DNA from: an uncultured Gammaproteobacteria bacterium
GTDB lineage: Bacteria; Patescibacteriota; Patescibacteriia; GCA-002772895
Assembly (NCBI GenBank): GCA_964522845.1
Contig: CAZFZQ010000002.1
Coordinates: forward strand, 1-39,097
Length of the DNA stretch: 39,097 nt
Direction of reading: 5' to 3'
The position numbers were made by a program, and so were the translations under genes. The notes beneath the pieces are model-generated. The model was not told the DNA's origin and ran no database searches. It saw only the letters and a program-made list of their open reading frames with translations. Within the stretch, counting starts at the first letter, position 1, and every line of letters starts with the position of its first letter. Of the stretch, positions 7,133-33,322 are shown one piece after another.

Positions 7133-8288
7133 TAGAAAAAGCAAATTTTATTTTTTATCCGCGATTATATTTATTCTGGCCTGTTTTAATGTTGTTTTAT
7201 TTTTAATAAACCACAACGCGATTCCCGGCTGGAACTTGGTATTTAAGCCGGACGCGCCGGCCGTGTCGCAACACATAAAAAAACCGGATGAAGTGCGCGG
7301 TATTTATATTACCGCTTACACCGCGGGAGTAAGCCGATTCGGCGAGCTGGTTGATTTTGTAAAAAATAATAATCTCAATGCCGCGGTGGTGGATATAAAA
7401 AGCCCCAAGGGCGAGCCCGCGTTTCTTTTGAAGGACAGCTTTCTTGCGCAATACAATATGTCGCGCCCGCTTTACAGTGTTGAAAATATTATTGCCAAAC
7501 TGCATCAGAATAATATTTATGCCATCGCGCGCATCGCGGTTTTTCAGGATCCGTATTTGGTGTCAAAAGAGCCGGCGCTTGCCTTGCAGTGGAAAAATGG
7601 CGGCGTTTGGACTGATTATAAGGGTGTGAAGTGGCTTGATCCCACGGCGTTTGGCGTTTGGCAATACAATGTCACTTTGGCGCGCGAAGCGTACGAACGG
7701 GGATTTGATGAAATCCAGTTTGATTATATCCGTTTTCCTTCCGACGGAAATATAGAAGCAATAAAATATGTCAAATGGGACGGCAAAACGCCAAAGGCGG
7801 TGGAAATGGAAAAATTTTTCAGTTATGTCGGCGGGATTTTGCGCCGCGAAAAAATTCCCGTGTCCGCGGATTTGTTCGGCCTGGTTTGTTGCATGGAAAA
7901 TTATGATTTGGGAATAGGGCAAGTGCTGGAACGCGCGCTTCCGCATTTTGATTATGTTTCGCCCATGATGTATCCGTCGCATTATTCGCCCGGGTTTGTT
8001 GGCAAAAAAAATCCCGCTTCTTATCCGTATGAAGTTGTAAAATACAGCATGGACATGGCAAATGGAAAAATTACGCGCTTCGCCGCGTCCTCCACCCCAC
8101 TTCGCCGAGGCTCCGCGGGGCAGGCCGTGCCTCTGGCGAAACTTCGGCCATGGATTCAGGATTTTGATATTGGTGATATTTATGATACGGCAAAAGTGCA
8201 GGCGCAAATAAAAGCAACGCGCGACACGAAGGCGGAAGGATTTTTGATTTGGAACGCGAGAAATGTTTATACGGAGTTGGTGCACTAA
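7119..8288 (+). CDS. Putative glycoside hydrolase-like protein (DUF4015/GHL family), membrane anchored
   Basis: N-terminal transmembrane segment, then RGIYITAY...AAVVDIK...FDEIQFDYIRFP motifs. Confidence 0.65.
   Translation: MSLHNRKSKFYFLSAIIFILACFNVVLFLINHNAIPGWNLVFKPDAPAVSQHIKKPDEVRGIYITAYTAGVSRFGELVDFVKNNNLNAAVVDIKSPKGEPAFLLKDSFLAQYNMSRPLYSVENIIAKLHQNNIYAIARIAVFQDPYLVSKEPALALQWKNGGVWTDYKGVKWLDPTAFGVWQYNVTLAREAYERGFDEIQFDYIRFPSDGNIEAIKYVKWDGKTPKAVEMEKFFSYVGGILRREKIPVSADLFGLVCCMENYDLGIGQVLERALPHFDYVSPMMYPSHYSPGFVGKKNPASYPYEVVKYSMDMANGKITRFAASSTPLRRGSAGQAVPLAKLRPWIQDFDIGDIYDTAKVQAQIKATRDTKAEGFLIWNARNVYTELVH
8095..8125. repeat. Intragenic GC-rich element, family 1 (CCCCACTTCGCC..AGGCT.CGCGGGGCA.GC)
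   Basis: Near-identical copies at 18767 and 33160. Encodes STPLRRGSAGQA in frame. Confidence 0.7.
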
Positions 8289-8323
8289 TTTCTGCCTTCT
8301 GCTCCACTCCCGTTGCCATCTCT

Positions 8324-8424
8324 ATAAATTATTACTCGTGTAAAATACTTCCAAAATTTATATAACTCACCCTCGCTCGCTCGGGCTCGGACAATATAAA
8401 TTTTGGACACGAGCAATAATTTAT
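8324..8424. repeat. Long imperfect inverted repeat with a GC-rich loop
   Basis: ATAAATTATTACTCGTGT..CCAAAATTTATAT pairs with ATATAAATTTTGG-ACACGAG-CAATAATTTAT. The loop is CTCACCCTCGCTCGCTCGGGCTCGG. Confidence 0.6.
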
Positions 8425-8547
8425 TACGAGCTGGCGGGCACAAGTCGTGGAGATAAGGCATAAATTATGCACCAAGAATAATGAGAATGGGGGAAAAGGT
8501 TGACATAGCCGGCGGGCTGTGTTAGTTTATATTTGAGGAGGTGGGAG

Positions 8548-8850
8548 ATGAAGAAGTGTGCGAAACAGAGCTGTGCTTTGGGTGCGTATGGTGGCGGCCT
8601 TTTTGCGGATGATGATAGTTATTGTTCAAATTGCGGCGGGAAATTGGTACCCAAAGAAGATGACCATTGCCAATGCGGCCATCGTTTAGGGGACAGTGAT
8701 AAGTTTTGTTCCGGTTGCGGACTTCCGCGCGAGGAGGCGGTGAAAAAAGAGACGGGCACCAAGCAGTCACGCCCGTGGATTTGTCTAAATTGCCATTCAG
8801 CAGTTAGGGCTGATCGCAATCATTGCCCAAGATGCGATCCAAATAAGTGA
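8548..8850 (+). CDS. Multi-zinc-ribbon protein (100 aa)
   Basis: GAGGAGG SD upstream of ATG 8548. Repeated CxxC pairs: CSNCG, CQCGH, CSGCG, CLNC, CPRC. Confidence 0.65.
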   Translation: MKKCAKQSCALGAYGGGLFADDDSYCSNCGGKLVPKEDDHCQCGHRLGDSDKFCSGCGLPREEAVKKETGTKQSRPWICLNCHSAVRADRNHCPRCDPNK

Positions 8851-8880
8851 CCAAGTTCATAAACTTGGTTTTTTTATTTT
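8851..8880 (+). terminator. Rho-independent terminator
   Basis: CCAAGTT-cata-AACTTGG followed by T7. Confidence 0.8.
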
Positions 8881-8892
8881 TGGCGTGGTAGA

Positions 8893-10965
8893 ATGATAGG
8901 AACATTAAATATGATTGATTATCAAAAAGAATTAAACCCGGAACAATTGGCAGTGGTGAAGGGCGGCGATGGGCCGTGCTTGGTCTTGGCCGGCGCGGGT
9001 AGTGGAAAAACGCGGACGATTATTTATCGTCTGGCGTATTTATTGGAAAAAGGCGCGGATCCGAGAAATATTTGTCTCGTCACTTTCACCAACAAAGCGG
9101 CGAAAGAAATGACAACCCGAGCCGAAGCGCTTTTGGGATATAAGCCGCAAGGAATGATTGCCGGCACTTTTCATCATCTGGCAAATTTTTTACTCCGCCG
9201 TTACGGAAAAAGAATCGGGCTGGAACCGAATTTTACCATTCTTGATGAAGACGATAAAAAATCTTTAATCAAAGCGTCTATTGGCGAATCAGGCGTGGAT
9301 ACAAAAAAGAAACGCTTTCCCATGCCCGCGGTGCTAAAAGAAATTTTCAGCTACGCAAAAAACAGCCGTAATAATTTGGAGCAGGTGATTGATTTGAAAC
9401 ATCCGAATTTTTTGCCCCTGCAGGAAGAAATTGCATCGGTCCGTCGGATTTATGAGAAAAAAAAGAAAGATGGAAATATGGTTGATTTTGATGATTTGCT
9501 GACTGCGACCTTAAATCTTTTAGAAACGCAAACTGACATTCGCGAAGGCTTGGCGCGCCATTTTCAATATTTATTGGTTGATGAATACCAGGACACCAAT
9601 CCGGTACAAGCCGCGATTTTGTACCACCTTTCGTCGCACTACAAAAATATACTGGTCGTGGGCGACGACGCGCAGAGTATTTATTCTTTTCGCGCCGCGG
9701 ACATAAAAAATATTTTGGATTTTAACAAAACCTATCCGGAAGCGAAAATGTTCAAGCTGGAAACCAATTATCGTTCCACGCCAAATATTTTGGATTTGGC
9801 CAATGACGTAATTTCTAAAAATTTTAATCAGTTTCCGAAAAATTTGAAATCGCTTCGGCCAAAATTATCCGCGCCGTCGTTGCTCTCGGCCGGAAGCCAA
9901 AATGATGAGGCAAAATTTATCGCTGATAAAATTTTGGAACTGCGCGGAGAGGGCGTGGAATTGAAAAATATGGCCGTGCTTTTTCGCGCCTCGTATCATT
10001 CGCAGGTTTTGGAAATGGAGCTCACGCGCCGCGATATTCCGTATGAGTATCGCGGGGGTGTGAAATTTTTTGAACGCTCGCACATCAAAGATGTAATTTC
10101 ATATTTACGCGCTTTTTTTAATCCTAAGGATGAGGCGGCGTGGACGCGCATTTTAAGTTTTGGCGTGGGCGTGGGGCCGGTCGCGGCGCAAAATATTTTT
10201 AACACGGTGGCGCAAAAAAATACCCCGCAAGAGATTGCGCAAATCACATCCTCCAATTTCGGTGCCAAAGCCGGCCTGCCTCGTGTTGGAGTCAAGGCGG
10301 GCAATTCTTGGAACGATATTTTGCGTCTGTGGCAAAAATTTTTAAATCTCGCTCCTGCTCCCAATAATTTTATTGAAGCGGTTTTATCATCACATTATCG
10401 CGATTATATGGAACACACTTATGATAATTTTGAAGATCGGTTAAATGATTTGATGGAGCTCGCGGCCTTTTCTTCAAAATATGAAAATCTGGAAAATTTT
10501 TTGACAGAAATAACTTTATTTGAAGATGTAGCGGTAAAAAATGACGGCGGAGCTTCATATGACCGCGAAAAAATGGTTTTATCAACCATCCATCAGGCCA
10601 AAGGCTTGGAGTGGAATACGGTTTTTATCATCAATTTGATTGATGGCGCGTTTCCCAATCGCCGCGCGCTCTTGGAAGACGGGGGAGTGGAGGAGGAGCG
10701 GCGGCTTTTTTACGTAGCTTGCACGCGCGCCAAAGAAAATTTGTTTTTGTCATACGCGTTTACGGGCGGTGGCGGCGATTTTGGCGGGATGAATTTTAAT
10801 GAGCCGTCAATTTTTTTGCGCGAAATGAAAGGAAGTTTAGTCAATAAAATTGATGGCAATGATGAAGACGATTTGCCGGTGATTGATATTGACGCGGATG
10901 ATATTGGAGACCGCAAAAAATTGCCCCGCAAAAGTTATCTGCAGGATATAAATTTGGATTTTTAA
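8893..10965 (+). CDS. pcrA: UvrD/PcrA/Rep-family ATP-dependent DNA helicase
   Basis: AGAGSGKT Walker A, LLVDEYQDTN, VGDDAQSIYSFRAA, TIHQAKGLEW, YVACTRAK. Confidence 0.9.
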   Translation: MIGTLNMIDYQKELNPEQLAVVKGGDGPCLVLAGAGSGKTRTIIYRLAYLLEKGADPRNICLVTFTNKAAKEMTTRAEALLGYKPQGMIAGTFHHLANFLLRRYGKRIGLEPNFTILDEDDKKSLIKASIGESGVDTKKKRFPMPAVLKEIFSYAKNSRNNLEQVIDLKHPNFLPLQEEIASVRRIYEKKKKDGNMVDFDDLLTATLNLLETQTDIREGLARHFQYLLVDEYQDTNPVQAAILYHLSSHYKNILVVGDDAQSIYSFRAADIKNILDFNKTYPEAKMFKLETNYRSTPNILDLANDVISKNFNQFPKNLKSLRPKLSAPSLLSAGSQNDEAKFIADKILELRGEGVELKNMAVLFRASYHSQVLEMELTRRDIPYEYRGGVKFFERSHIKDVISYLRAFFNPKDEAAWTRILSFGVGVGPVAAQNIFNTVAQKNTPQEIAQITSSNFGAKAGLPRVGVKAGNSWNDILRLWQKFLNLAPAPNNFIEAVLSSHYRDYMEHTYDNFEDRLNDLMELAAFSSKYENLENFLTEITLFEDVAVKNDGGASYDREKMVLSTIHQAKGLEWNTVFIINLIDGAFPNRRALLEDGGVEEERRLFYVACTRAKENLFLSYAFTGGGGDFGGMNFNEPSIFLREMKGSLVNKIDGNDEDDLPVIDIDADDIGDRKKLPRKSYLQDINLDF
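10275..10301. repeat. Intragenic GC-rich palindromic element (CCTGCCTCG...CAAGGCGGG)
   Basis: Related to the 16630 and 23143 elements. Encodes GLPRVGVKAG inside the helicase. Confidence 0.5.
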
Positions 10966-12420: not shown

Positions 12421-12873
12421 ATGGAAAACCAAACAAGAGTCGGTATTGGCATAATGATTACAAAAGATAGAAGGGTTCTGCTTGGTAAGCGCAAGGGTTC
12501 ACATGGCGCGGGAGAATATGCTTTTCCCGGCGGACATTTGGAGTATATGGAATCTTTTAAGACATGTGTTCTGCGCGAGCTGGCGGAAGAATGTGGTGAG
12601 ATGCTGCAAATTAAAAATATCCAATTTATTCATGTCGCCAATATCATGGAATACGCGCCAAAACATTATACACATATCGGGCTTTCCGCACTTTGGGAAA
12701 GCGGCGAACCGCAAGTAATGGAACCGCAAAAATGCGAAGGTTGGGATTGGTACGATTTGTACCATCTTCCCGCGCCACTCTTTCAACCAACTCAACTGAC
12801 TTTGGAATGTTATAAACAAGGGGTGCCTTATCTGGATTCGGGTGAAATAGGGGAATTCCTTTCCAAACCATAA
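12421..12873 (+). CDS. NUDIX hydrolase
   Basis: Nudix box GGHLEYMESFKTCVLRELAEECG. GGAAGGAG SD. Confidence 0.85.
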   Translation: MENQTRVGIGIMITKDRRVLLGKRKGSHGAGEYAFPGGHLEYMESFKTCVLRELAEECGEMLQIKNIQFIHVANIMEYAPKHYTHIGLSALWESGEPQVMEPQKCEGWDWYDLYHLPAPLFQPTQLTLECYKQGVPYLDSGEIGEFLSKP

Positions 12874-12910: not shown

Positions 12911-12966
12911 ATGTTCAGAGCTCAACTCTGCACATAGGGGAATGTTAAGAGTTGAGCTCTGAACAT
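12911..12966. repeat. Perfect 19-bp inverted repeat with an 18-nt spacer
   Basis: ATGTTCAGAGCTCAACTCT...AGAGTTGAGCTCTGAACAT, followed by the direct repeat CATTATACA x2. Confidence 0.8.
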
Positions 12967-14252: not shown

Positions 14253-14254
14253 AT

Positions 14255-14326
14255 TCCTCCCTTTGGAAAAGGGAGGCGAGGAGGGATTTATAAATCCTCC
14301 CTAACCCTCCTTTTCCAAAGGAGGGG
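14255..14326. repeat. Triple-hairpin G/C-tract palindromic element (CCTCCC..GGGAGG family)
   Basis: Contains CCTCCCTTTGGAAAAGGGAGG, GGAGGGATTTATAAATCCTCC and CCCTCCTTTTCCAAAGGAGGGG. Confidence 0.7.
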
Positions 14327-14406
14327 ATTGGAAAGCGGTTTTATTTTTTAAAATTTTTTAACCATTCTCTAATTCGCGCGAATAGGCGAATAGTTGGGTA
14401 TGGGCA

Positions 14407-15430: not shown

Positions 15431-16750
15431 ATGACAGATTTATTTGACCAAAATTTAAAAAATAAGAATACCCCGCTTGCCGAGAGATTAAGGCCAAAGG
15501 ATTTTTCCGATTTCGCCGGACAGGAACACTTGGTGGGCGAGGGCGCGCCGCTCCGGACTTTGATTGAAAAAGATGAAATTCCGTCAATGATTTTTTGGGG
15601 GCCGCCGGGCACGGGCAAAACCACGCTTGCGGAAATTATCGCCAAAAAAACCGGCTCGCGTTTTGTGGTTTTGGAAGCGACGTCTTCCGGAAAAGCGGAT
15701 TTAAAAAAAATAATGGAAGAGGCGATGGGGCTTTTGAAATTTCAAAATCGCCGGACGATTTTATTTATTGATGAAATCCACCGTTGGAACAAAGCCCAAC
15801 AAGATGCGCTGTTGCCGTATGTAGAACGCGGGCTTCTAACTTTGATCGGCGCCACCACGGAAAATCCTTCGTTTGAAGTGGTGGGCGCGCTTTTGTCCCG
15901 CACCCGCGTTTTTACGCTTAACGCGTTTTCCAAAGACGACATGCTTTTGATTTTGAAGCGCGCGTTGCGCGAAGTTTTTCAAAGCGATAAACTGAAGATT
16001 CAATTTGAAATCGGCGCGCCGGACTTATTGATCGGTTTGGCCGGCGGCGACGCGCGTTCACTCCTCGGCGCGTTTGAAATTCTCCTCAAATCCAAAACTG
16101 TAGGGGTTGCGAAGCCCTACAGTGGGGAGGAGGATAAAAATGTGCTATTATTAAAGAAAGAAGATATAAAGCGGGCATATCTTTCCGCCAATATTTTGTA
16201 TGACAAAGGCGGGGAGGAACATTACAATATTATTTCCGCTCTGCACAAATCAATGCGCGGGTCGGATGCGGATGCCGCGCTCTATTGGCTGGCGAGAATG
16301 TTGGAGTCGGGCGATGACCCTTTATACGTGGCAAGAAGGCTTGTTCGTTTTGCATCCGAAGATATCGGCTTGGCCGACCCGGAAGCGTTAAATCAGGCTG
16401 TTTCCGCGTATCAGGCGGCGCATTTTCTAGGCATGCCGGAGTGCAACGTTATTTTGGCCCAGGCCGTGGCTTATCTGGCGCGCGCGCCAAAATCAAACGC
16501 GCTTTATATGGCGTACGGCGAAATCCAAAAAGATATTAAAGAATTGCCGCGCGATCCGGTGCCGCTCCATTTGCGGAACGCGCCAACAAATTTGATGAAA
16601 GATTTGGGGTATGGAAAAGAATACAAGTACCCGCCTCGACTCGCGGAGACTCGTCGACGCGAGGCGGGTAATCCGAATTTTAAAGAGCCGGTGGAGCAAG
16701 ATTATTTGCCGCCGGGATTGAGAGGAAAAAAGTATTTAAAAGATAAATGA
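15431..16750 (+). CDS. rarA: Replication-associated recombination protein A (AAA+ ATPase)
   Basis: GPPGTGKTT Walker A, LFIDEIHR, GATTENPSF, ALHKSMRGSD and DALYWLARM motifs. Confidence 0.9.
   Translation: MTDLFDQNLKNKNTPLAERLRPKDFSDFAGQEHLVGEGAPLRTLIEKDEIPSMIFWGPPGTGKTTLAEIIAKKTGSRFVVLEATSSGKADLKKIMEEAMGLLKFQNRRTILFIDEIHRWNKAQQDALLPYVERGLLTLIGATTENPSFEVVGALLSRTRVFTLNAFSKDDMLLILKRALREVFQSDKLKIQFEIGAPDLLIGLAGGDARSLLGAFEILLKSKTVGVAKPYSGEEDKNVLLLKKEDIKRAYLSANILYDKGGEEHYNIISALHKSMRGSDADAALYWLARMLESGDDPLYVARRLVRFASEDIGLADPEALNQAVSAYQAAHFLGMPECNVILAQAVAYLARAPKSNALYMAYGEIQKDIKELPRDPVPLHLRNAPTNLMKDLGYGKEYKYPPRLAETRRREAGNPNFKEPVEQDYLPPGLRGKKYLKDK
16100..16120. repeat. Intragenic GC-rich hairpin (GTAGGG-gttgcgaag-CCCTAC)
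   Basis: Encodes VGVAKPYSG within rarA. Confidence 0.45.
16630..16668. repeat. Intragenic GC-rich palindromic element, family 2 (CCCGCCTCG...CGAGGCGGG)
   Basis: Shares its termini and the CTCGCGGA core with the copy at 23143. Encodes PRLAETRRREAGN in rarA. Confidence 0.7.
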
Positions 16751-18485: not shown

Positions 18486-19862
18486 ATGAAAAAAATATTA
18501 CAACAAATTCTCAAATATCTCGCGCGAAAAATTTTACAAAAATATAAGCCCGAGGTCATTGCCATCACCGGATCGGTGGGTAAGACCTCGGCCAAGGAAA
18601 CGATTCACACTGTTTTGATGAACACATTTTTAGTTCAACAGAATATTAAAAATTATAATAATGAATTGGGCGTGCCGCTTACGATTATCGGCGCGGAAGC
18701 GGCAGGAAAAAATATTTTCAAATGGCTCGGAGTATTTTTGAAAGCTGTTAAACTTTTGATGAGCGACCCCACTTCGCCCGTCCTCCGCACAAGGCTACGG
18801 AACGGCACAGCAAGGCTACGCGGGGCAAGCGCCAACTATCCAAAGGTTTTAATTTTGGAACTGGCCGTGGACAAGCCCGGCGACATGGATTATTTATTGG
18901 ATTTTGTGAAGCCCAGGATCGGAGTTTTGACGCGCATCGGACCAGTTCACTTGGAATTTTTCGGCACGCAAGAAAAGATTTTGCAAGAAAAATCAAAATT
19001 GATAAAAGCCTTGCCGCAAAACGGTTTTGCGGTTTTAAATTATGATTATAAAGATGTTTTGAGTTTGTGCGATATAACAAAAGCAAAGTGTATCACCTAT
19101 GGTTTTGACGAAGGCGCGGACGTGCGGGCGAAAAATATTTTATACGGCCGCGGGCCGGCCTCGACTGGCGCGAGTCCAGGCGGGCAGACGACTTTTACTC
19201 TGGAATACGGCGATAAAACATCGGCCGTGGTTCTTTTGCGCGCGGCTGGCAAACCGCAAATTTACGCTATATTGGCGGGTATTTGTTGCGGCATTGTGAA
19301 AGGAATGGATTTGGAAAAAATAAAAGAAGCGTTAAAAAGTTATGTGCCGCCAAAAGGCAGGGGCAATGTTTTAAAGGGTATAAAAAATACATTGATTATT
19401 GATGAAACTTACAATGCTTCGCCCCAAGCCGTGGAAGCGGCTCTGGAAAATTTGGCCCGTCTTTTTCCTCCCACCCTTGATAAGGGGGGGATAAGGGGGG
19501 GTAGAAGTGTCGCCGTCTTGGGCGACATGCTTGAACTCGGCCCCATTACACGCGACGCCCATCTATCGGTTGGAAAAAAAGCCGCGGAATTGGAATTGAA
19601 TTATCTTTTTACCGTAGGTTTGCGTGCTAAAGATATTGCCCGCGGTGCGCGCGAAGCCGGTATGATAAAGGATCGCATTTTTGAATTTTCCGACAACTTA
19701 TCTCTTGGCAAATTTTTGCAAGAAAAAATAGAAGAAGGGGATATTATTTTGGTCAAAGGTTCGCAAGGCGCGAGAATGGAAAAAGTTGTCAAAGAAATTA
19801 TGGCCGAGCCGGAGAGAGCCCATGAGCTTTTAGTAAGGCAAGATAAACAGTGGCAAGTATAA
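18486..19862 (+). CDS. murF: UDP-N-acetylmuramoyl-tripeptide--D-alanyl-D-alanine ligase
   Basis: ITGSVGKTS P-loop and Mur ligase middle and C-terminal motifs (DETYNASP, VKGSQGARME). Confidence 0.85.
   Translation: MKKILQQILKYLARKILQKYKPEVIAITGSVGKTSAKETIHTVLMNTFLVQQNIKNYNNELGVPLTIIGAEAAGKNIFKWLGVFLKAVKLLMSDPTSPVLRTRLRNGTARLRGASANYPKVLILELAVDKPGDMDYLLDFVKPRIGVLTRIGPVHLEFFGTQEKILQEKSKLIKALPQNGFAVLNYDYKDVLSLCDITKAKCITYGFDEGADVRAKNILYGRGPASTGASPGGQTTFTLEYGDKTSAVVLLRAAGKPQIYAILAGICCGIVKGMDLEKIKEALKSYVPPKGRGNVLKGIKNTLIIDETYNASPQAVEAALENLARLFPPTLDKGGIRGGRSVAVLGDMLELGPITRDAHLSVGKKAAELELNYLFTVGLRAKDIARGAREAGMIKDRIFEFSDNLSLGKFLQEKIEEGDIILVKGSQGARMEKVVKEIMAEPERAHELLVRQDKQWQV
18767..18830. repeat. Intragenic GC-rich element, family 1 (expanded copy)
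   Basis: CCCCACTTCGCC...AAGGCTACGG..AAGGCTACGCGGGGCAAGC. Encodes PTSPVLRTRLRNGTARLRGASA. Confidence 0.7.
19146..19190. repeat. Intragenic GC-rich element, family 2-like
   Basis: GCCGGCCTCGACTGGCGCGAGTCCAGGCGGGC. Encodes GRGPASTGASPGGQT. Confidence 0.5.
19467..19501. repeat. Intragenic G/C-tract element (CCTCCC...GGGGGGG family)
   Basis: CCTCCCACCCTTGATAAGGGGGGGATAAGGGGGGG. Encodes PPTLDKGGIRGG. Confidence 0.5.
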
Positions 19863-23118: not shown

Positions 23119-23212
23119 GCGGCCCCTTCGTCTAACGGTTAGCCCGCCTCGACTCGCGGACGTCGTCGACTCGCCTCGATTCGGCGAAGCGGGCGCGAGG
23201 CGGGGACGCGAT
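23119..23212 (+). pseudogene. tRNA-Glu-like 5' fragment (acceptor plus D-arm) with a repeat element in the D-loop, truncated at the anticodon stem
   Basis: GGCCCCTTCGTCTAACGGTTAG...[insert]...GGACGC matches the 5' third of a tRNA-Glu. No anticodon arm, T-arm or 3' acceptor strand follows. Confidence 0.55.
23143..23204. repeat. Composite GC-rich palindromic element (family 2 carrying the CTCGCCTCGATTCGGCGAAGCGGGCG core also seen at 32047)
   Basis: CCCGCCTCGACTCGCGGA...CGAGGCGGGG. Confidence 0.7.
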
Positions 23213-23217
23213 ATCTT

Positions 23218-23469
23218 ATGTATTCTATTTATTGGTTAGTAGATGAAACTAAAACAAGAACTTATGTTGGGTTCTCTGATGATTTATTTAGGCGGTTGTC
23301 TGAGCATAAAAACGGTAAAGTAAAAACGACCAAAAACTTTGGCGCTTTTCAATATAAAATATTGGAAGAAGTACAAACAGAAAATGAAGCAAGACAAAAA
23401 GAGCTCTACTGGAAGTCTTGCGCTGGAAGAAAAAAATTAAAGAAATTATTTCACGCCGCCATCGTCTAA
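23218..23469 (+). CDS. Small GIY-YIG nuclease-family protein (UPF0213/YhbQ-like, 83 aa)
   Basis: YIYWLVD..TYVGFSDDLFRRLSEHKNG...ARQKELYWK pattern. Confidence 0.75.
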   Translation: MYSIYWLVDETKTRTYVGFSDDLFRRLSEHKNGKVKTTKNFGAFQYKILEEVQTENEARQKELYWKSCAGRKKLKKLFHAAIV

Positions 23470-23529
23470 TGGTTAGGACGCTAGGTTCTCAACCTGGTAA
23501 TCGGAGTTCGATTCTCCGTGGCGGTACCA
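23455..23529 (+). tRNA. tRNA-Glu (anticodon CUC) with encoded CCA
   Basis: Manual cloverleaf: acceptor GCCGCCA/TGGCGGT, D-arm GTCT-AATGGTTA-GGAC, anticodon arm CTAGG-TTCTCAA-CCTGG, T-arm CGGAG-TTCGATT-CTCCG. Confidence 0.85.
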
Positions 23530-25598: not shown

Positions 25599-27133
25599 TG
25601 TTTTTTATGGAAAAGTTTTATATCACAACGCCAATTTATTATATCAACGACAAGCCGCATATCGGCCACGCGTACACCACGATAACGGCTGACGTGCTTG
25701 CCAACTATAATCGCCTAAAAGGGCGAGATGTTTATTTTTTGACGGGTACGGACGAGAATTCGCAAAAAAATATTGAGGCCGCGAAAAAATTTTATAAAAA
25801 AGAAGATTTGTCTAAAGATGAAATTAAAAAATATTTGGACGGGATGGCGGCGACTTGGAAGGCCGCCTGGGAGAAATTAAAAATATCGAACACGGATTTT
25901 GTTCGGACAACCGAACCGCGGCACATTGAGGCGGTGCAGAAATTTTTCAAGCTCGTTTGGGACAAGGGCGATATTTACAAAGGATTTTACGAGGGCTATT
26001 ATTGCGAAGCGTGCGAAGAATTCAAAAGCGAAAAAGATTTGGTGGAGGGCTTTTGTCCAATTCATAAAACCGCGGTCAAAAAAATAAAAGAAGAAAATTA
26101 TTTTTTCCGTCTGACAAAATACCGCGAAAAACTTTTGAAGCATATAGAAAAAAATCCTGATTTTATAATGCCGGAATCGCGGAAGCATGAAGTGATAAAT
26201 TATATCAAAGATTTTTCTTCCGATATAAGCATCACGCGCGAATCAATGAAGTGGGGCATAGAAGTGCCGGAGATGCCCGGCCAAGTGCTTTATGTTTGGT
26301 TTGACGCGCTGATAAATTATTTATCAGGAATCGGATTTGGAGAAAATAACAACCCTTCTTCGCGTAAAGCTACGAAGGGCGCAAATCAATTTGCGAAATA
26401 TTGGCCCGCGGATCTGCATTTGGTGGGCAAGGATATTATTAAGTTTCATTGCGCGCTTTGGCCGGCCATGTTGCTGTCGGCAGGGCTTCCGCTTCCGAAG
26501 CAAGTTTTTGCGCACGGATTTTTTACCGTTGCCGGAGAAAAAATGTCCAAGTCGCTGGGAAATGTTGTTGATCCGGTTGCGGCGGCGGAAAAATACGGCC
26601 GCGATGCCCTACGGTATTATTTGTTGCGCGAAATTTCGTTCGGCGAGGACGGCGATTTTTCTTTCGCGCGATTGGAAGAAAGATATAATTCCGATTTGGT
26701 AAACGGCTTGGGAAATCTTGTCGCGCGTGTTTTTGCGCTGGCGGAAAAACATTTGGAAAAAATGCCAAAAGAAAAAGAAAGCTATCTTGAGGACTTTTGG
26801 AAAGAGTATGAAAAGAATATCTGCGAATTGAAATTGCATACCGCTTTGACCTTGATTTGGGAGGAGATTTCCAAGTGTGATATAATAGTAGATAAGGAAA
26901 AGCCGTGGGAGCTGGCAAGCACACAAAAGCATGGAAGCAAAAAAACAAAGAAGCAAGAAGACGAAGATAGAGAGAAATTGACTAAAGTTTTGAACGATTT
27001 ATTGGAAAGAATCAGGCAAATCGCTTTGGCTCTCCGTCCATTTTTGCCGGAAACCGCGGAAAAGATTTTGAATAAATTTGAAGGCAAGGAGCCGTTGAAA
27101 GGCGAACTATTATTTCCAAGATTAGAAAAATAA
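25598..27133 (+). CDS. metG: Methionyl-tRNA synthetase (core form; alternative start at 25607)
   Basis: TPIYYINDKPHIGHAYT (HIGH), KMSKS, and Zn knuckle CEACEE..CPIH. Confidence 0.95.
   Translation: MFFMEKFYITTPIYYINDKPHIGHAYTTITADVLANYNRLKGRDVYFLTGTDENSQKNIEAAKKFYKKEDLSKDEIKKYLDGMAATWKAAWEKLKISNTDFVRTTEPRHIEAVQKFFKLVWDKGDIYKGFYEGYYCEACEEFKSEKDLVEGFCPIHKTAVKKIKEENYFFRLTKYREKLLKHIEKNPDFIMPESRKHEVINYIKDFSSDISITRESMKWGIEVPEMPGQVLYVWFDALINYLSGIGFGENNNPSSRKATKGANQFAKYWPADLHLVGKDIIKFHCALWPAMLLSAGLPLPKQVFAHGFFTVAGEKMSKSLGNVVDPVAAAEKYGRDALRYYLLREISFGEDGDFSFARLEERYNSDLVNGLGNLVARVFALAEKHLEKMPKEKESYLEDFWKEYEKNICELKLHTALTLIWEEISKCDIIVDKEKPWELASTQKHGSKKTKKQEDEDREKLTKVLNDLLERIRQIALALRPFLPETAEKILNKFEGKEPLKGELLFPRLEK
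26353..26379. repeat. Intragenic GC-rich hairpin, family 3 (CCCTTC...GAAGGG)
   Basis: Encodes NPSSRKATKGA in metG. A sister copy lies at 28608. Confidence 0.55.
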
Positions 27134-27704: not shown

Positions 27705-28823
27705 ATGAAGAATACAATTAAGAAAAAGGTTTTTGTAGCTTTATCCGGCGGGGTGGATTCGTCGGTGTCTTTATATTTATTAAAGAAAGCAGGTTATGAC
27801 GTGACTGCGGTTTTTATAAAAATCGGCGAAGAGATTGAACGGGCGGAAGGCGATGAAGTCAATGTTGATAAATGCTGGATAGGGGAGCGCAGAGACGCTA
27901 TGCGGGTCGCGGCTTATTTGGATGTGCCATTTTTAACTTTTGATTTTGATAAGGAGTATAAGAGTCAGGTGTTGGATTATTTTTATCGCGAATACAAAGC
28001 CGGCCGGACGCCGAATCCCGATGTAATGTGTAATAGAAAAATAAAATTTCCATTATTTTGGAAAAAAGCCAAAGCATTGGGCGCGGATTTTATGGCAACG
28101 GGGCATTACGCCCGAATTGCCAAAGGCAATCCGGGAAATTTCAAATTGTTGAAAGGAAAAGATAAAGAAAAAGACCAATCGTATTTTTTATATAACCTAA
28201 CATCGCGCGACCTTGAACACATTTTGTATCCGATTGGAAATTTAACAAAACCGGAAGTCCGGCGGATCGCCAAAGAAGCCGGACTTCCCACGGCGGAGAA
28301 AAAAGAAAGCCAGGGCCTGTGTTTTGTGGGACAAGTCAATATTCGCAATTTTTTGAAAACAAAAATCAAGCCAAAAAAAGGAAAAGTAGTTGATATGGCG
28401 GGAAAAATTGTTGGCGAACACGAGGGTTTGTATTATTACACCATTGGCCAGCGGCACGGCGTGGGCGTTTCCGGCGCGAGCGAGCCATATTTTGTCATTG
28501 GAAAAAATATCAAAAAAAACGAACTTGTTGTCGCCCCGCAAAAAGATGAAAAAAAGTTTTATAAAAAAGAACTGGCAGTCAGCGATTTAACTTGGGTTTC
28601 CGGCCTGCCCTTCGAAGCTTCAGCGAAGAAGGGTGCTCCTAAATTTCCCTTAAATTGTTCCGCCCGCATCCGCTATCGCGCGCCGCTCCAAAAATGCGAA
28701 GTGAAAAAGCGCGGCAAAGATTATGTTGTTAAATTTTTCTCCCCCCAGCGTGCCATCACGCCCGGCCAGTCGATCGTCTTTTACAAAGGCGAGGAAGTCC
28801 TTGGCGGCGGCATCATAGAATAA
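27705..28823 (+). CDS. mnmA: tRNA 2-thiouridine(34) synthase MnmA
   Basis: VALSGGVDSSVS PP-loop, NPDVMCN and QSYFLY motifs. Confidence 0.95.
   Translation: MKNTIKKKVFVALSGGVDSSVSLYLLKKAGYDVTAVFIKIGEEIERAEGDEVNVDKCWIGERRDAMRVAAYLDVPFLTFDFDKEYKSQVLDYFYREYKAGRTPNPDVMCNRKIKFPLFWKKAKALGADFMATGHYARIAKGNPGNFKLLKGKDKEKDQSYFLYNLTSRDLEHILYPIGNLTKPEVRRIAKEAGLPTAEKKESQGLCFVGQVNIRNFLKTKIKPKKGKVVDMAGKIVGEHEGLYYYTIGQRHGVGVSGASEPYFVIGKNIKKNELVVAPQKDEKKFYKKELAVSDLTWVSGLPFEASAKKGAPKFPLNCSARIRYRAPLQKCEVKKRGKDYVVKFFSPQRAITPGQSIVFYKGEEVLGGGIIE
28608..28633. repeat. Intragenic GC-rich hairpin, family 3 (CCCTTC...GAAGGG)
   Basis: Encodes LPFEASAKKGA in mnmA. Confidence 0.55.
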
Positions 28824-28866
28824 ACGTACGCAAGGTAATTTTATTATTTTGTCAGATAATTCTTTT

Positions 28867-28900
28867 TTGATATAATACTGCTATAGCACAATTATATCAA
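28867..28900. promoter_or_regulatory. Palindromic site 1 (TTGATATAAT-N14-ATTATATCAA) overlapping a -10 box
   Basis: 10-bp perfect inverted arms. TTGTCA-16 nt-TATAAT promoter geometry. Lies 9 nt before the regulator ATG. Confidence 0.6.
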
Positions 28901-28909
28901 AATTAACTT

Positions 28910-29455
28910 ATGGAGAAAAAATATAAAAAATTAGAAAAGTTTAAAAATAAATTATGTTTTGCTTTGAATGAAATCAACCTTTTTTTATTGCAATGGAAGC
29001 AAGCGATGGACTCTGTGCCCGGGACGATATATCCCGCAAAAATGCCGAAAGATTGGCGTTTTTATCAATTAGTCAGGCAAAAGTACATAATACGCGCCAA
29101 GGATAAAGACGGAAGGCATTTTTGGCGGCTGACGACCAAGGGTATGAATGTAGCGGAACTTTTGGCATTTAAATTGAATAAAGAAAAATGGGATAAGCAC
29201 TGGCGCATTTTAATATTTGATATACCGGAAAGGAGGAAAAAGTATCGTGAATTTTTAAGAAGAAAATTAAAAGAACTCGGGTTTTGCCAATTGCAAAAAA
29301 GCGTGTGGGTAACGCCGCATCCGATACCGGAATCGTTTGCGTGGTTTTTGAATAATTATAAGTTAGCCGATGATGTTCATTATATTGTGGCTGAAGAAAT
29401 CAGTAACAATAAGCGACTGGAAAATTTTTTTAAATTGAATCGGTCAAAAAAGTAA
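28910..29455 (+). CDS. PaaX-like (Cas2-fold middle domain) putative transcriptional regulator
   Basis: WRILIFDIPERRKKYREFLRRKLKELGFCQLQKSVWVTPHP signature. Confidence 0.65.
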   Translation: MEKKYKKLEKFKNKLCFALNEINLFLLQWKQAMDSVPGTIYPAKMPKDWRFYQLVRQKYIIRAKDKDGRHFWRLTTKGMNVAELLAFKLNKEKWDKHWRILIFDIPERRKKYREFLRRKLKELGFCQLQKSVWVTPHPIPESFAWFLNNYKLADDVHYIVAEEISNNKRLENFFKLNRSKK

Positions 29456-29457
29456 TT

Positions 29458-29491
29458 TAGATATAATACTGCTATCGCACGATTATATCAA
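29458..29491. promoter_or_regulatory. Palindromic site 2 (TAGATATAAT-N14-ATTATATCAA), a near-copy of site 1
   Basis: 31 of 34 positions are identical to 28867-28900. Lies 2 nt after the regulator stop. Confidence 0.6.
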
Positions 29492-29502
29492 GGATGAGTC
29501 AT

Positions 29503-29556
29503 TTGCAAAAAAATAAAAAAATAAAAAATAAAAAAGCTTGGAGAATTTCCAAGCTT
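29503..29556 (-). terminator. Rho-independent terminator (copy A of a duplicated terminator module)
   Basis: Minus strand reads AAGCTTGGA-aattc-TCCAAGCTT followed by a long T-rich run. Confidence 0.75.
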
Positions 29557-29576
29557 GAGGTTTATTCCATAGGGTT

Positions 29577-30167: not shown

Positions 30168-30218
30168 GTAATCCTCCTTGTCCTTGCATACAATCTATCA
30201 CAAGAATCGATTCTGTCA

Positions 30219-30251
30219 ATAAAAAAAAGCCCGCATTGATATTATGTGGGC
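30219..30251 (-). terminator. Rho-independent terminator
   Basis: Minus strand reads GCCCAC...GCGGGC followed by T8. Confidence 0.65.
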
Positions 30252-30265
30252 CACAGGTAATATAT

Positions 30266-30622
30266 CTAACGGGTTTGTTTGCGGACTTCTTCTGCTCCAT
30301 AATCGACGCCGAGAAACGGGTCGTCATTTTTGTTAATTCCTTCTTGTGTTTCAATCCACAGCTGAAGGAGGTTCTCGTCGCCAATAACCTCCAAAACTGT
30401 GTTTCGATACATCAGAATTTTGCAAGGTGTCCTGGATCTATCAAAGAAGATTTTTGCGGGCACTCTTCTTGTAAATTTCTTTACGCAACGAAAAACCCGT
30501 TCGCGCCCTTGGTTATCTTTTCGCACTTGGAAGGAGATAACCGCCGCAGGTTCTTTTCGCCATCCCCAACCCGCGCTCCATATTCCCGACTCTTGAATGA
30601 ACTCGCTGGCCAGTTTGTACAT
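30266..30622 (-). CDS. Hypothetical cytoplasmic protein (118 aa)
   Basis: GGAGG lies 6 nt upstream of the ATG. Preferred over the Cys-rich + strand shadow ORF 30158-30730. Confidence 0.55.
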   Translation of the reverse strand: MYKLASEFIQESGIWSAGWGWRKEPAAVISFQVRKDNQGRERVFRCVKKFTRRVPAKIFFDRSRTPCKILMYRNTVLEVIGDENLLQLWIETQEGINKNDDPFLGVDYGAEEVRKQTR

Positions 30623-30685
30623 ATTGCCTCCATTTCGGCCGCTTGTAATTTTATATCACATGCTTGGCAAAATGTCAACAATCGC

Positions 30686-30719
30686 GAAAATAAAAAAAGC
30701 TTGGAGATTTTCCAAGCTT
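30686..30719 (-). terminator. Rho-independent terminator (copy B of the duplicated module)
   Basis: Same AAGCTTGGA/TCCAAGCTT hairpin as at 29534-29556, followed by a T-run. Confidence 0.75.
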
Positions 30720-30752
30720 GGGTTATGTAAAGAATTGGGTGGCCGAATATCC

Positions 30753-31391
30753 TTATTCGCCGCACACTGAGGCGTCAATTCTTGGATTTTGCCACCAAGG
30801 ATGTGTCTTCAAAAAATAGCTCCTTAAGAAGTATGCTTTAATTTTGCATCCTTTTTTTAGGTGGTTTACGTTTTTTGGATAAAGGATTCGATTATTATAA
30901 AACTTTTTTTCCAGCGGAAGGGTATCGCTATTGAACCATCCGGTTTTTTCAAATGCTTCTGCGGATATTTCTCGTGTTTTTCCACCAATATCCAAAAAAG
31001 AGGCTTTTATGTTGTAACCAACATATGTATCACATTGGGTATCCTGAGTTTTGGCTTCGCCATTTTTAAACATAATTTTTACAGGGCCATGACAAATTGT
31101 TTTTGTTTGTGCCTTACCAACATAAGTAATGATGCCATCTGAAGTATATAGCTGGTTTGGTTCACAAGTATAAAACAACCATCCAAGGCATGCGCAAACT
31201 CCAATAATTTTTATACTTTTTGCTGATAATCTACTCCAATCTATTGGCTGTCGCGGCTGTTTCGGCTTTTTGGGAACAGGATTTTGCAATTTGTGAATGA
31301 GCTGATTTTTTTCTTTCAGTTCTTTTTCGAGCTGAATGATGCGTTCTTGTGCGGCAACTTCATTATCCCTCAGGGGATTCATGTTGGTCAT
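30753..31391 (-). CDS. Hypothetical protein with an N-terminal coiled-coil, one transmembrane helix and a Cys-containing extracytoplasmic domain (212 aa)
   Basis: Long ORF with its own terminator, divergent from alaS. Confidence 0.65.
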   Translation of the reverse strand: MTNMNPLRDNEVAAQERIIQLEKELKEKNQLIHKLQNPVPKKPKQPRQPIDWSRLSAKSIKIIGVCACLGWLFYTCEPNQLYTSDGIITYVGKAQTKTICHGPVKIMFKNGEAKTQDTQCDTYVGYNIKASFLDIGGKTREISAEAFEKTGWFNSDTLPLEKKFYNNRILYPKNVNHLKKGCKIKAYFLRSYFLKTHPWWQNPRIDASVCGE

Positions 31392-31501
31392 TTTCCGTCC
31401 TCCTACTACATATATAATATAAAACTAACCGCTTGTCAAGCCAAGGGAAATGCTGTAAATTATAAGGTAGCCCCTCGATTTGCTCGGGGATTATAATTTT
31501 T

Positions 31502-33322
31502 ATGACCGTAAAAGAATTGCGGCAAAAATATTTGGAATTTTTTAGAGAAAAAGGGCATGCGATAATACCTTCGTCGTCTTTGGTTCCGGAAAACGACCCG
31601 ACCACTCTTTTTATTACCGCGGGAATGCACCCTTTGGTTCCATATCTTTTGGGGCAAAAACATCCGCAAGGCACACGGCTCGCCAGCGTGCAAAAATGCA
31701 TCCGCACAACCGACATTGATGAAGTTGGCGACGCTACGCATCTTACTTTTTTTGAAATGCTGGGCAATTGGTCCTTGGGTGATTATGGAAAAAAAGAAGC
31801 CATAGAAATGAGTTTTGAATTTTTAACTTCTCCCAAGTGGTTGGGGATTCCATTAGAAAAATTGGCGGTTACTGTCTTCGAAGGGGCGGAGGGAATTCCA
31901 AAAGATGATGAAGCCGCGTCTGTTTGGCAAAAATTGGGAATGCCCAAAAACAGAATTGCTTTCATGGGCAAGAAAGATAATTGGTGGGGGCCGGCCGGCA
32001 TAACCGGACCGTGCGGACCGGATACGGAAATGTTTTTTTATGTTGGCTCGCCTCGATTCGGCGAAGCGGGCGAGGGCAAGCCGTCCGCAACAAGCAATCC
32101 CAAAACCGCGCCCAAAGAATGGGTGGAAATTTGGAATGATGTCTTCATGATTTATAACAAAACAAAAGATGGCAAGTACGAAGATTTGAAACAAAAAAAT
32201 ATTGATACGGGCATGGGGCTGGAGCGGACCGCGGCCGTGCTTCAAGGAAAAAAATCCGTTTATGATATAGAGTTATTTTCCCCGCTTTTTAATCAATTGG
32301 AAAAAGTTTGCGGGAAAAAATATGCCGACCGGCCCAAAGAATTCCGTATTGTTGTCGACCATGTACGCGCCGCGTCATTTATTTTGGCCGAGGGTGTGAC
32401 GCCATCAAATATTGATAGAGGATATGTTTTGCGCCGGCTTATTCGCCGCGCTTATCGGTATGGAAAACTTTTAGGCATTGAAGGAGAGTTTTTAATGAAG
32501 CTCACGGAAATTATTGTAAATCAGATGCGGAGCGAATATCCGGAACTGCAAGAAAATTTGCAATTTATCACTTCGCAATTGGCGCAAGAAGAAGACCGTT
32601 TCCAGGCGACACTGGAACGCGGATTGCGCGAATTTTCCCGTATGAGCGCGGGAGGGAAACTTTCCGGGCAAGAAGTGTTTACGCTTTTTTCCACCTATGG
32701 TTTTCCTTATGAAATGACGGAAGAATTGGCAAAAGAAAAAAATATTTCCGTAAATAAAAAAGAATTTGATGAAGAATTTTCCAAGCATCAAGAATTGTCG
32801 CGCAAGGGTGCGGAAGGAAAATTCAAAGGCGGACTGGCGGACACGGAAGAAGCAACAAAAAAATTGCACACCGCGACCCATCTTTTGCAGGCAGCGCTCC
32901 GCAAAGTTTTAGGAGATCGTGTGCAACAGCGCGGTTCCAACATCACGGCCGAGCGTTTGCGTTTTGATTTTGTCCATCCGGAAAAAATGACCGCGGAACA
33001 ATTAAAAAAAGTTGAAGAATTGGTGAATGGCGCCATCGCGGCGGATTACAAAGTGGAATGCCGTGAGATGCCGACTGCGGAAGCGGAAAAATCCGGCGCC
33101 CTGGGATTTTTCGGACATAAATACGGCGATACGGTAAAAGTATATACCGTTGGGGCGGGCCCCACTTCGCCAAGGCTTCGCGGGACAAGCAAAGACGTTT
33201 TTTCAAAAGAAATTTGCGGCGGTCCGCACGCTGAGCACACAGGCGAGCTTGGAAAATTCAAAATCTTAAAAGAAGAAGCCGTCTCCGCGGGCGTGAGAAG
33301 AATCAAGGCGGTGCTGGAGTAG
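31502..33322 (+). CDS. alaS: Alanyl-tRNA synthetase, truncated form (606 aa, no C-Ala domain)
   Basis: Class II core (FTNAGM-like FITAGMHP), editing motifs HTATHLLQAAL and CGGPH. Ends right after the editing domain. Confidence 0.9.
   Translation: MTVKELRQKYLEFFREKGHAIIPSSSLVPENDPTTLFITAGMHPLVPYLLGQKHPQGTRLASVQKCIRTTDIDEVGDATHLTFFEMLGNWSLGDYGKKEAIEMSFEFLTSPKWLGIPLEKLAVTVFEGAEGIPKDDEAASVWQKLGMPKNRIAFMGKKDNWWGPAGITGPCGPDTEMFFYVGSPRFGEAGEGKPSATSNPKTAPKEWVEIWNDVFMIYNKTKDGKYEDLKQKNIDTGMGLERTAAVLQGKKSVYDIELFSPLFNQLEKVCGKKYADRPKEFRIVVDHVRAASFILAEGVTPSNIDRGYVLRRLIRRAYRYGKLLGIEGEFLMKLTEIIVNQMRSEYPELQENLQFITSQLAQEEDRFQATLERGLREFSRMSAGGKLSGQEVFTLFSTYGFPYEMTEELAKEKNISVNKKEFDEEFSKHQELSRKGAEGKFKGGLADTEEATKKLHTATHLLQAALRKVLGDRVQQRGSNITAERLRFDFVHPEKMTAEQLKKVEELVNGAIAADYKVECREMPTAEAEKSGALGFFGHKYGDTVKVYTVGAGPTSPRLRGTSKDVFSKEICGGPHAEHTGELGKFKILKEEAVSAGVRRIKAVLE
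32045..32082. repeat. Intragenic GC-rich element (CTCGCCTCGATTCGGCGAAGCGGGCGAG)
   Basis: Same core as 23170-23195. Encodes GSPRFGEAGEGKP. Confidence 0.65.
33160..33190. repeat. Intragenic GC-rich element, family 1
   Basis: CCCCACTTCGCCAAGGCTTCGCGGGACAAGC encodes GPTSPRLRGTSK just before the conserved ..SKEICGGPH. Confidence 0.7.

Follow-up and report, generated by a model that had tools for sequence, protein, structure and literature searches.

Repeats in the studied window

The DNA studied here, further referred to as the window, covers positions 1–39,097 of the contig CAZFZQ010000002.1 of the assembly GCA_964522845.1 and is contained in a 54-kb metagenome contig of the ENA (ERZ27284381 k139_871625). 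Its genes are size-reduced housekeeping genes (e.g. the alanyl-tRNA synthetase, AlaRS, has 606 aa), nearly all of them on the plus strand, and the GC skew is positive along the whole window. The nearest relatives of the AlaRS and MurF proteins come from metagenome-assembled genomes (MAGs) named "Patescibacteria group" or Parcubacteria. Short GC-rich hairpin-forming repeats lie in and between these genes. We consider it probable that this genome of the Patescibacteria, or Candidate Phyla Radiation (CPR), has been colonised by several families of ultra-short (24–39 nt) non-autonomous GC-rich hairpin repeats that are copied into new sites.

The repeats were noticed in a first-pass annotation, which listed thirteen sequences and described at least eleven of them as GC-rich elements inserted in frame in conserved genes. 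All thirteen are present where it had placed them, and every copy assigned to an open reading frame (ORF) lies inside it and brings no stop codon. The GC content of the elements is 56–81%, compared to 39–51% per kb (about 42% overall) in the AT-richer window. The similarity between copies is not explained by base composition, since the motif counts far exceed chance, shared motifs being present 4–5 times compared to 0–0.15 in shuffled sequence. The pattern GCCTCG-N(3-30)-GGCGGG has five matches in the window against 0.05 expected; CCC..CTTCGC…CG..GGG, four against 0.0 in 100 shuffles; CTCGCCTCG…GCGGGCG, two against 0.0 expected; and the 26-nt string CTCGCCTCGATTCGGCGAAGCGGGCG occurs identically at 23170 and 32047 with zero occurrences expected. 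In a scan of the window at Rfam gathering thresholds the sole match was tRNA-Glu, and no repeat matched a curated RNA family.

We regrouped the repeats into four families named A, B, C and D. Four families had also been proposed in the first-pass annotation; they are indeed repeats, but the CCCTTC..GAAGGG copies are not a family of their own. They keep the family A core TTCGC…GCTnCG…GGGC, with the stem changed from CAC/GCG to TTC/GAA on both sides, and the copy in mnmA is the reverse complement of family A. The consensus of family A is CCCCACTTCGCyrarGCTnCGCGGGGCArGC, and its copies in the window start at 8095, 18767, 26353, 28603 (minus strand) and 33160. A covariance model of the family, R1, which supplies the bit scores below, finds all five and no other strong match in the window. 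Family B is CCCGCCTCG…CGAGGCGGG, in general form CC(C/T/G)GCCTCG…AGGCGGG, at 10275, 16630, 19155 and 23143. Family C is the 24-nt unit CTCGCCTCGATTCGGCGAAGCGGG, at 23170 and 32047, and family D is of the CCCC…GGGG type, at 19467 and in intergenic copies. One repeat sequence may be read in differing frames and orientations, giving PTSPRLRG, PLRRGSAGQ or, from the reverse strand, LPFEASAKKG.

Insertion sites compared with relatives

The window was compared with syntenic DNA from GCA_017973895.1 (L117, L118 and L120) and GCA_043808725.1 (L119 and L121) using protein and codon alignments; AlaRS relatives are 72–88% identical and MurF relatives 63–85%. Filled and empty sites were paired in seven genes. 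Nine segments are clean lineage-specific insertions, with lengths of 24, 27, 30, 30, 30, 33, 33, 39 and 60 nt; every length is a multiple of three and none contains a stop codon.

Five of the nine belong to family A. The copy in the DUF4015 gene (8095–8125, plus strand, 49 bits) encodes TPLRRGSAGQ and is a 30-nt insert missing from the L121 orthologue. In murF, the copy at 18767–18830 (plus strand, 39.6 bits), encoding DPTSPVLRTRLRNGTARLRGAS, holds a degenerate A-like copy at its centre, after CTTCGCC; this 60-nt insert is missing from 18 of 18 MurF relatives and is thus unique among 19 MurF proteins. The variant with the CCCTTC/GAAGGG stem in metG (26353–26384, plus strand, 36.7 bits) encodes NPSSRKATKGA, a 33-nt insert missing from L117, L118 and L119. 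The mnmA variant (28603–28633, placed at 28608 in the first-pass annotation; 46.5 bits) lies on the minus strand, so that the gene reads LPFEASAKKGA; it pairs with the 8095 copy as an inverted-repeat match, and its 33-nt insert is missing from three relatives. Finally, the copy in the AlaRS editing domain (33160–33190, plus strand, 51.2 bits), encoding PTSPRLRGTS, is a 30-nt insert common to the closest relative P0002/L117 only and missing from 21 others.

Three inserts are of the B type, those in uvrD and murF being B-like. A hairpin in uvrD (10275–10301, pattern match), encoding AGLPRVGVK, is a 27-nt insert missing from L120 and L121. The palindrome in rarA (16630–16668), encoding PPRLAETRRREAG, has a DNA folding energy of −14.5 kcal/mol (z = −2.6) and is a 39-nt insert likewise missing from L120 and L121. 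The second insert in murF (19155–19184, pattern match; earlier placed at 19146) encodes GPASTGASPG and has a length of 30 nt; it is missing from L120, L121 and most relatives and is common to P0123 only. The remaining insert is the family C unit in the catalytic domain of AlaRS (32047–32070, plus strand; earlier placed at 32045). Its 24 nt encode GSPRFGEA, are identical to positions 23170–23193, and are missing from 22 of 22 relatives, so the peptide is unique among 23 AlaRS proteins.

The expectation that aligning the host proteins with orthologues would reveal lineage-specific insertions was thus borne out at these nine sites; two further sites are less clear-cut. The family D element in murF (CCC..GGGGGG type, 19467–19502, plus strand, encoding PPTLDKGGIRGG) is patchily distributed: the site is empty in L121 and many relatives, and several others carry different D-type variants. 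The rarA hairpin GTAGGG-GTTGCGAAG-CCCTAC (16100–16122, plus strand, fold −6.8 kcal/mol, z = −3.9) is no more than a candidate for a recent insertion: the segment is shared with L121 and is longer, by 9 aa, only in comparison with Escherichia coli MgsA; from the alignment, this hairpin may be older than the clean inserts.

The relatives hold copies of their own at other positions, such as PTSHEASRG in the L119 AlaRS and several inserts in MnmA. Some inserts are common to separate assemblies (L117, P0123), and an assembly artefact is therefore excluded. The surface-loop location expected for the inserts is consistent with an AlphaFold model of AlaRS (mean pLDDT 80.6), where both inserts are predicted as coil with pLDDT below 50 (residues 186–190 and 553–564). 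Relative to solved structures, the segments 182–205 of AlaRS and 328–338 of MurF are extra residues.

Genic copies that persist have lengths divisible by three and are free of stop codons in the frame used. Since the retained copies are in frame and stop-free, the repeat appears to be constrained at the nucleic-acid level, the peptide being a by-product. The same filter bears on the suggestion that the segments are removed before or during translation (intron-like, bypassed or intein-like) and do not occur in the proteins. A precedent exists in the 'byp' elements of Magnusiomyces, GC-rich mobile inserts in yeast mitochondrial genes that are bypassed by the ribosome. However, removal would not impose the condition obeyed by all nine clean intragenic inserts, and 8–13 residues are far too few for an intein; we regard removal as very improbable.

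Other insertions and repeats were seen in the same alignments. The window metG contains a 40-nt AT-rich lysine-coding segment (26917–26956, …STQKHGSKKTKKQEDE…) missing from L118 and L120; not every lineage-specific insertion here is a GC-rich hairpin. Further repeat families, of the GTCATTCCCG…CGGGAATGAC and GTCATTGCGAG… types, lie between genes or at gene ends in L118 (7412–7533) and L120 (5672–5772) and recur in other CPR loci.

Junctions and nesting

No target-site duplication was found at the insertion junctions compared with empty sites, where the ambiguity is at most 1–3 nt; the first C of A and of B may be assigned to the host codon. For family A no upstream target motif was found: position −1 is only weakly purine-rich, and the flanks do not pair with the tail of the element. 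B copies follow host sequence resembling the 3'-end of B (AARGCSGG in uvrD, CGCGGG in murF), and both C copies of the window stand before CG(C)GAGG.

An alternative is that the segments arose locally, by replication slippage or template switching at quasi-palindromes, or are ordinary variable loops whose likeness reflects GC-rich codon bias. Some junctions do overlap arm-like host sequence (uvrD AAGGCGGG, murF CGCGGG, alaS CGAGG), and several sites are variable loops in distant homologues too. Against this, identical 24–31-nt strings occur at unrelated loci and in about 90 assemblies, and family C in at least 120 metagenome contigs (see below), with a chance expectation of about zero; moreover, a single repeat sequence is found in all three reading frames and in either strand orientation. 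Exact recurrence with unrelated flanks in our judgement already refutes a local origin, and we hold it to be very improbable.

Single units are 24–39 nt long and nested composites 60–63 nt. The clearest composite is intergenic (23143–23205, fold −21 kcal/mol): taking out the 24-nt C unit (23170–23193) restores a B copy nearly identical to the 16630 copy in rarA, and therefore C was inserted into the loop of B. Nesting of A in A is seen at 18767, L033 and L041. Taken with the filled and empty sites, the repeats enter new sites as discrete units with constant ends, in either orientation, in or between genes, without target duplication.

The 23143 composite itself splits a 24-nt fragment resembling the 5'-part of tRNA-Glu (GCGGCCCCTTCGTCTAACGGTTAG…GACGCG). 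It is followed by an 83-aa GIY-YIG ORF (23218–23469) that overlaps the start of an intact tRNA-Glu(CTC) gene (23455–23529). The region 23119–23529 resembles a scar left behind by a small element that carried GIY-YIG and had become integrated at the tRNA gene.

Two intergenic D-type double hairpins, e.g. CCTCCCTTTGGAAAAGGGAGG and CCCCTCTAAAGAGGGG / CCCCCTTTTAAGGGGG, lie at 14253–14328 and 35153–35236. They are of the same class as the murF 19467 insert and as inserts in the MnmA and RarA of relatives.

Family C beyond the window

The exact 24-mer of family C was found in at least 120 metagenome contigs with a median GC content of 41%. Counts of C copies given here, and of family A loci below, refer to the matches listed. 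More than half of the listed C copies (77 of 123) lie inside open frames of at least 150 codons. The flanks of 39% of the 123 copies pair at −6 kcal/mol or better, compared to 2% of controls, and by eye most copies are in the loop of another hairpin. Among the hosting hairpins are B-type and D-type elements, an element CCTGCCTG…CCGGCAGGCAGG that recurs, unique stem-loops and further copies of C. Thus, family C prefers the loops of other hairpins, including copies of itself; no such enrichment for nesting in loops was seen among the listed copies of family A. Head-to-tail C arrays were observed as well: L217 (about 455–550, minus strand) contains four consecutive copies, namely three exact matches and a flanking unit, and L139 and L195 contain two tandem units each.

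The C-bearing contigs mostly lack family A (five weak matches in 705 kb), and neither B nor C has matches in 0.8 Mb of A-bearing CPR loci. Therefore, the families differ in host range.

Family A across CPR genomes

A pattern with 20 specified bases was used to search a collection of species-representative genomes. Family A was found at no fewer than 115 loci in about 90 CPR assemblies, near-identical over about 26–31 nt and with unrelated flanks; the 5'-boundary is sharp, and the 3'-tail GCARGC is partly conserved. All hosts found are CPR genomes. Titles of the loci contain at least 19 CPR lineage names: Berkel-, Sacchari-, Woese-, Davies-, Gottesman-, Levy-, Shapiro-, Beckwith-, Nomura-, Zambryski-, Staskawicz-, Wildermuth-, Vogel- and Uhrbacteria, as well as Peribacteria, Kazan, Paceibacterota, Parcubacteria and Minisyncoccia; one bin is labelled Nanoarchaeia. 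About 23 loci are titled Gammaproteobacteria or Pseudomonadales (third-party 'binchicken' MAGs). These titles are unreliable and several of the MAGs are evidently CPR: L048 is syntenic with a Gottesmanbacteria contig (L082), at 83–94% protein identity, and OZ246414.1, also among the mistitled MAGs, is a 915-kb chromosome.

Inside open frames of at least 150 codons lie 73 of 116 copies (63%). They use all three frames (PHFAKASRG, PTSPRLRGA and PLRQGFAGQA), and PREALAKWG also occurs across CPR. Host genes include those for class I aminoacyl-tRNA synthetases (aaRS), UvrC, ribonucleotide reductase, GatB and tRNA-guanine transglycosylase (TGT). The CCCCAC strand is the sense strand in 56 genic copies and the antisense strand in 17. 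A replication-strand bias was considered and rejected: the genic bias follows gene orientation, and intergenic copies have no orientation bias relative to local GC skew (15 vs 21). The bias is best explained by selection on mRNA against the stronger hairpin, or on the peptide against the Cys/Trp-containing product of the other strand. Of the two orientations, sense forms the weaker RNA hairpin, as an A·C mismatch takes the place of the G·U pair found on the opposite strand.

Applied to 700 kb from the first 100 CPR loci, the covariance model finds another 31 copies, about one extra copy per 22 kb, compared to five in the 39-kb window; the density ranges from one per 8 kb to one per 22 kb. Spread by phages was rejected, as the A pattern has no match in 2.9 million viral contigs. 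A linked mobilising gene was looked for in an all-against-all comparison of 1,713 ORFs from 115 A-bearing loci: no family occurs in more than ten loci, and the recurrent families are housekeeping genes, often A hosts themselves. Nor does any neighbouring gene recur among the 116 copies. Linkage to GIY-YIG genes was rejected as well: such ORFs occur in six of the 115 loci, too few, although one adjoins the 23143 composite.

The extent of conservation suggests that A might be a cis-signal for a CPR-wide protein (in DNA uptake or self-recognition, replication or repair), kept uniform by selection or uptake-driven molecular drive and tolerated even within genes. The near-identity over many lineages, the absence from viral contigs and the absence of a linked gene would agree with this, and so would the filling of the same sites in orthologues just 38% identical (see below). 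Moreover, CPR bacteria rely on nucleotides taken up from outside and possess competence genes. On the other hand, uptake sequences of Neisseria and Haemophilus occur about once per kb, and the density of A is low; copies of A arise as discrete insertions, while uptake sequences come about chiefly through substitution; and the compensatory changes in the stem indicate a folded single strand rather than a duplex motif. Families B, C and D behave like A without its breadth of conservation, B and C having no matches in the 0.8 Mb of other CPR DNA. On balance, a cis-signal of this kind is unlikely.

Structure of family A and its copies at RNA genes

In the fold of family A, an outer stem of 6 bp is separated by a conserved 3×3 internal loop (TTC/TNC) from an inner stem of 3 bp, which ends in a tiny loop; this hairpin has 26 nt and is followed by a 5-nt tail. 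Positions 12 and 15, left free in the search pattern, form a Watson–Crick pair in 102 of 116 copies against 51 expected from marginal frequencies, mostly C-G (55) or T-A (44). The covariance model was built from 26 A copies. In the model alignment 98.8% of cells are paired and seven of nine pairs have double changes, which neither any of 500 shuffles nor the slid controls match; a reservation is that the alignment had been fitted to the model and that part of the signal could stem from two master sequences.

In the complementary strand, G·U (G·T in DNA) replaces the A·C mismatch, the internal loop reads GNA/GAA, and the terminal loop is CUUG or UUUA. Folded as RNA, this strand has −12.8 kcal/mol, compared to −8.8 kcal/mol for the CCCCAC strand. 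The heptamer GCGNAGC, which forms very stable DNA mini-hairpins, occurs in the complementary strand of A, yet the covariation at 12/15 favours the extended hairpin.

Clusters of covariance-model matches fall inside two RNase P RNA genes (L085, 3300–3673, 100.4 bits with RF00010; L090, 3227–3608, 99.1 bits). Three A-type hairpins with GNRA loops lie in each gene, oriented in the strong way that forms G·U, at P3 or J5/7, P13 and P16/17; one of them is a 27-nt insertion relative to the Rfam model. Copies of A also adjoin tRNA genes without a single base between: at the 5'-ends they have the strong orientation (L065, L083, L097, L077), and on the 3'-side the other one (L077, L016). The two RNase P RNA genes score at the gathering threshold of RF00010 (100 bits), and routine annotation may miss such genes.

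Family A may have originated from a hairpin like P3 of RNase P RNA. In its full form, this explanation states that A derives from a structured-RNA module (a P3-like or peripheral RNase P hairpin, or a tRNA leader hairpin) and spread via an RNA intermediate or gene conversion. It would account for the conservation of A, for the strong-orientation GNRA-loop hairpins at P3, P13 and P16/17 in two lineages, for the copies abutting tRNA 5'-ends in the same orientation, and for the fact that the strand present in these RNAs folds best (−12.8 to −17.2 kcal/mol). However, the three hairpins within one RNase P RNA are more alike than such helices are in other bacteria. This mutual likeness and the presence of one hairpin that the Rfam model lacks agree better with an invasion of the RNA gene than with an origin from it. 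Dispersed copies have loops of the CUUG or UUUA type and not GNRA, most genic copies are in the opposite orientation, and no link to a reverse transcriptase was seen. We therefore rate derivation of the whole family from such a module as distinctly improbable.

Mechanism and weight of the evidence

Colonisation by mobile hairpin repeats remains the reading that we prefer. The repeats could move via a single-stranded DNA hairpin intermediate processed by a structure-specific enzyme acting in trans, as in the model of repetitive extragenic palindromic (REP) sequences with their REP-associated tyrosine transposases (RAYT) or in that of the HUH Y1 transposases of IS200/IS605. By analogy with these systems this route is favoured by the size of 24–31 nt, by the imperfect palindromes with a conserved internal loop (TTC/TNC), by the one-sided unpaired GCARGC tail of A, by the absence of duplications and by insertion into hairpin loops. 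We give it somewhat less than an even chance.

Several points weigh against the colonisation reading. First, no transposase, RAYT or other mobilising enzyme was identified in the 8-kb pieces of CPR genomes that were read. Second, by DNA nearest-neighbour energies A is not unusually stable (z = +0.8 to +1.6), so the A hairpin rests on covariation; the B, C and 16100 hairpins are stable by the same energies (z = −2.5 to −3.9). Third, it is from the frame and stop filtering that we infer that inserts would be read through as loops of 8–13 residues, with much Pro, Arg, Gly, Ser and Ala, at surface sites that tolerate them. Fourth, orthologous sites in UvrC (L057 and L073), TGT (L076 and L086, 38% protein identity) and class I aaRS (L023 and L101; L043 and L052) are filled in lineages far apart from each other, in some cases with the element inverted, its tail included. 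Such sharing needs a hot spot or targeting, a scarcity of permissive sites, or ancient inserts kept homogeneous. In-situ flipping at the UvrC and TGT sites was rejected, as the unpaired tail is inverted too; the inverted tail favours independent insertions, or excision and re-insertion. Finally, the near-identity of A across lineages of candidate-phylum level is unusual for neutral selfish repeats, known REP sequences differing between species, and is the main unexplained fact. It argues for strong constraint, frequent transfer or function.

A broader proposal is tentative, and we think that it has rather less than even odds. Family A, a hairpin of about 31 nt conserved throughout the Patescibacteria, would represent an undescribed class of ultra-short elements, either structure-seeking mobile units or a domesticated cis-signal for a CPR-wide protein. 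It would repeatedly reshape loops on the surface of essential proteins, add or replace helices at the periphery of RNase P RNA, and form the borders of tRNA genes. Its uniformity would be actively maintained by targeted insertion, gene conversion or selection, and would not be due to recent common descent.

Other repeats of the window

A 73-nt direct repeat (28865–28937 and 29456–29528, 75% identical) flanks a PaaX_M-like ORF (28910–29455); the palindrome TTGATATAATACTGCTATAGCACAATTATATCAA in it is possibly an operator for this regulator. After an ORF ending at 12873 there is an AT-rich inverted repeat (12911–12966), which has no relation to the GC-rich families; its 25-nt arms are 92% complementary and separated by 6 nt.

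Comparison with known systems and implications

Rickettsia palindromic elements (RPEs), reportedly described by Ogata and co-workers in 2000, were the precedent named in the first-pass annotation. They are mentioned in PMC1779305 and PMC3767692. The filled and empty sites in conserved housekeeping genes bear the comparison out as a likeness of behaviour only, and we claim no homology. In both cases palindromic repeats of a small reduced genome, non-coding themselves, occur in frame in conserved protein genes and in RNA genes and are tolerated at the protein surface. However, RPEs are about 100–150 nt long and confined to Rickettsia, whereas the present elements are 3–5 times shorter (24–39 nt), nest in each other and are GC-rich against a 42% background, and family A spans the CPR radiation.

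REP sequences and their REPIN-RAYT systems, as well as IS200/IS605 ends (PMC3733652, PMC3184786), are similar: they too are imperfect GC-rich palindromes of 20–40 nt, in which mismatches are conserved and one side bears a short conserved tag that is unpaired; they occur in high copy number, cause no target duplication and are non-autonomous. REPs carry a conserved GTAG or CGTC tetranucleotide at one end (PMC3733652), whereas the tail of A is GCARGC (GCYTGC in reverse), with neither. Moreover, REPs are extragenic by definition, usually paired or clustered, and species-specific; here most listed A and C copies are in long open frames, the elements are mostly solitary, and A is conserved across candidate phyla. 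Miniature transposable elements with terminal inverted repeats (MITEs) differ in having target-site duplications and lengths of 50–500 nt, and DNA uptake sequences (DUS/USS) differ from discrete insertions with compensatory stem changes at one per 8–22 kb.

Among organellar palindromes, yeast mitochondrial GC clusters, 'byp' elements and the double-hairpin elements of Allomyces are likewise short GC-rich hairpins spread in AT-richer compact genomes, entering coding regions and their own copies. No transposase is known for organellar palindromic elements. Other examples are the organelle palindromes of Volvox (PMC2670323), the coding palindromes of Nematomorpha and the mitochondrial DNA hairpins of placozoans (PMC6649704, PMC7813641). 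The present elements differ in residing in a bacterial chromosome and in that byp is skipped by the ribosome, while the frame and stop filtering here indicates read-through.

IS1397 and ISKpn1 insert into REP loops, and class C group II introns insert after terminators. Landing in or next to a stem-loop is shared with family C, but those elements are kilobase-sized and autonomous, while here the inserted unit is the 24-nt hairpin itself. Enterobacterial ERIC and RU repeats are small and non-autonomous and occasionally occur in ORFs, adding peptide segments (PMC2759123, PMC2229807); they differ in their length of 100–170 nt, MITE-like inverted-repeat structure and mainly intergenic location.

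A literature search, including exact nucleotide and peptide strings, retrieved no description of such elements for CPR bacteria; the published insertion sequences in CPR rRNA are introns and inserts of the intervening-sequence type and not these hairpins. Selfish palindromes tolerated in coding sequence are already known from Rickettsia, organelles and enterobacterial repeats. New here are the extreme shortness, the nesting in hairpin loops, the positions taken within RNase P RNA and next to tRNA genes, and the conservation throughout the radiation. Among the discrete insertions known to us whose ends are constant, these are some of the smallest.

Much of bacterial diversity belongs to the CPR, whose tiny streamlined genomes are usually called repeat-poor. 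Dense colonisation of their essential genes by 24–39-nt hairpins would account for many odd Pro/Arg/Gly-rich segments in CPR protein predictions, and would have consequences for homology searches, alignments, phylogenies and structure predictions in this group. A radiation-wide 31-nt sequence is a potential diagnostic marker and a handle on an undescribed DNA or RNA transaction in near-unculturable organisms. Because the elements land in hairpin loops, their mechanism can be approached by experiment in those few Saccharibacteria that are tractable.

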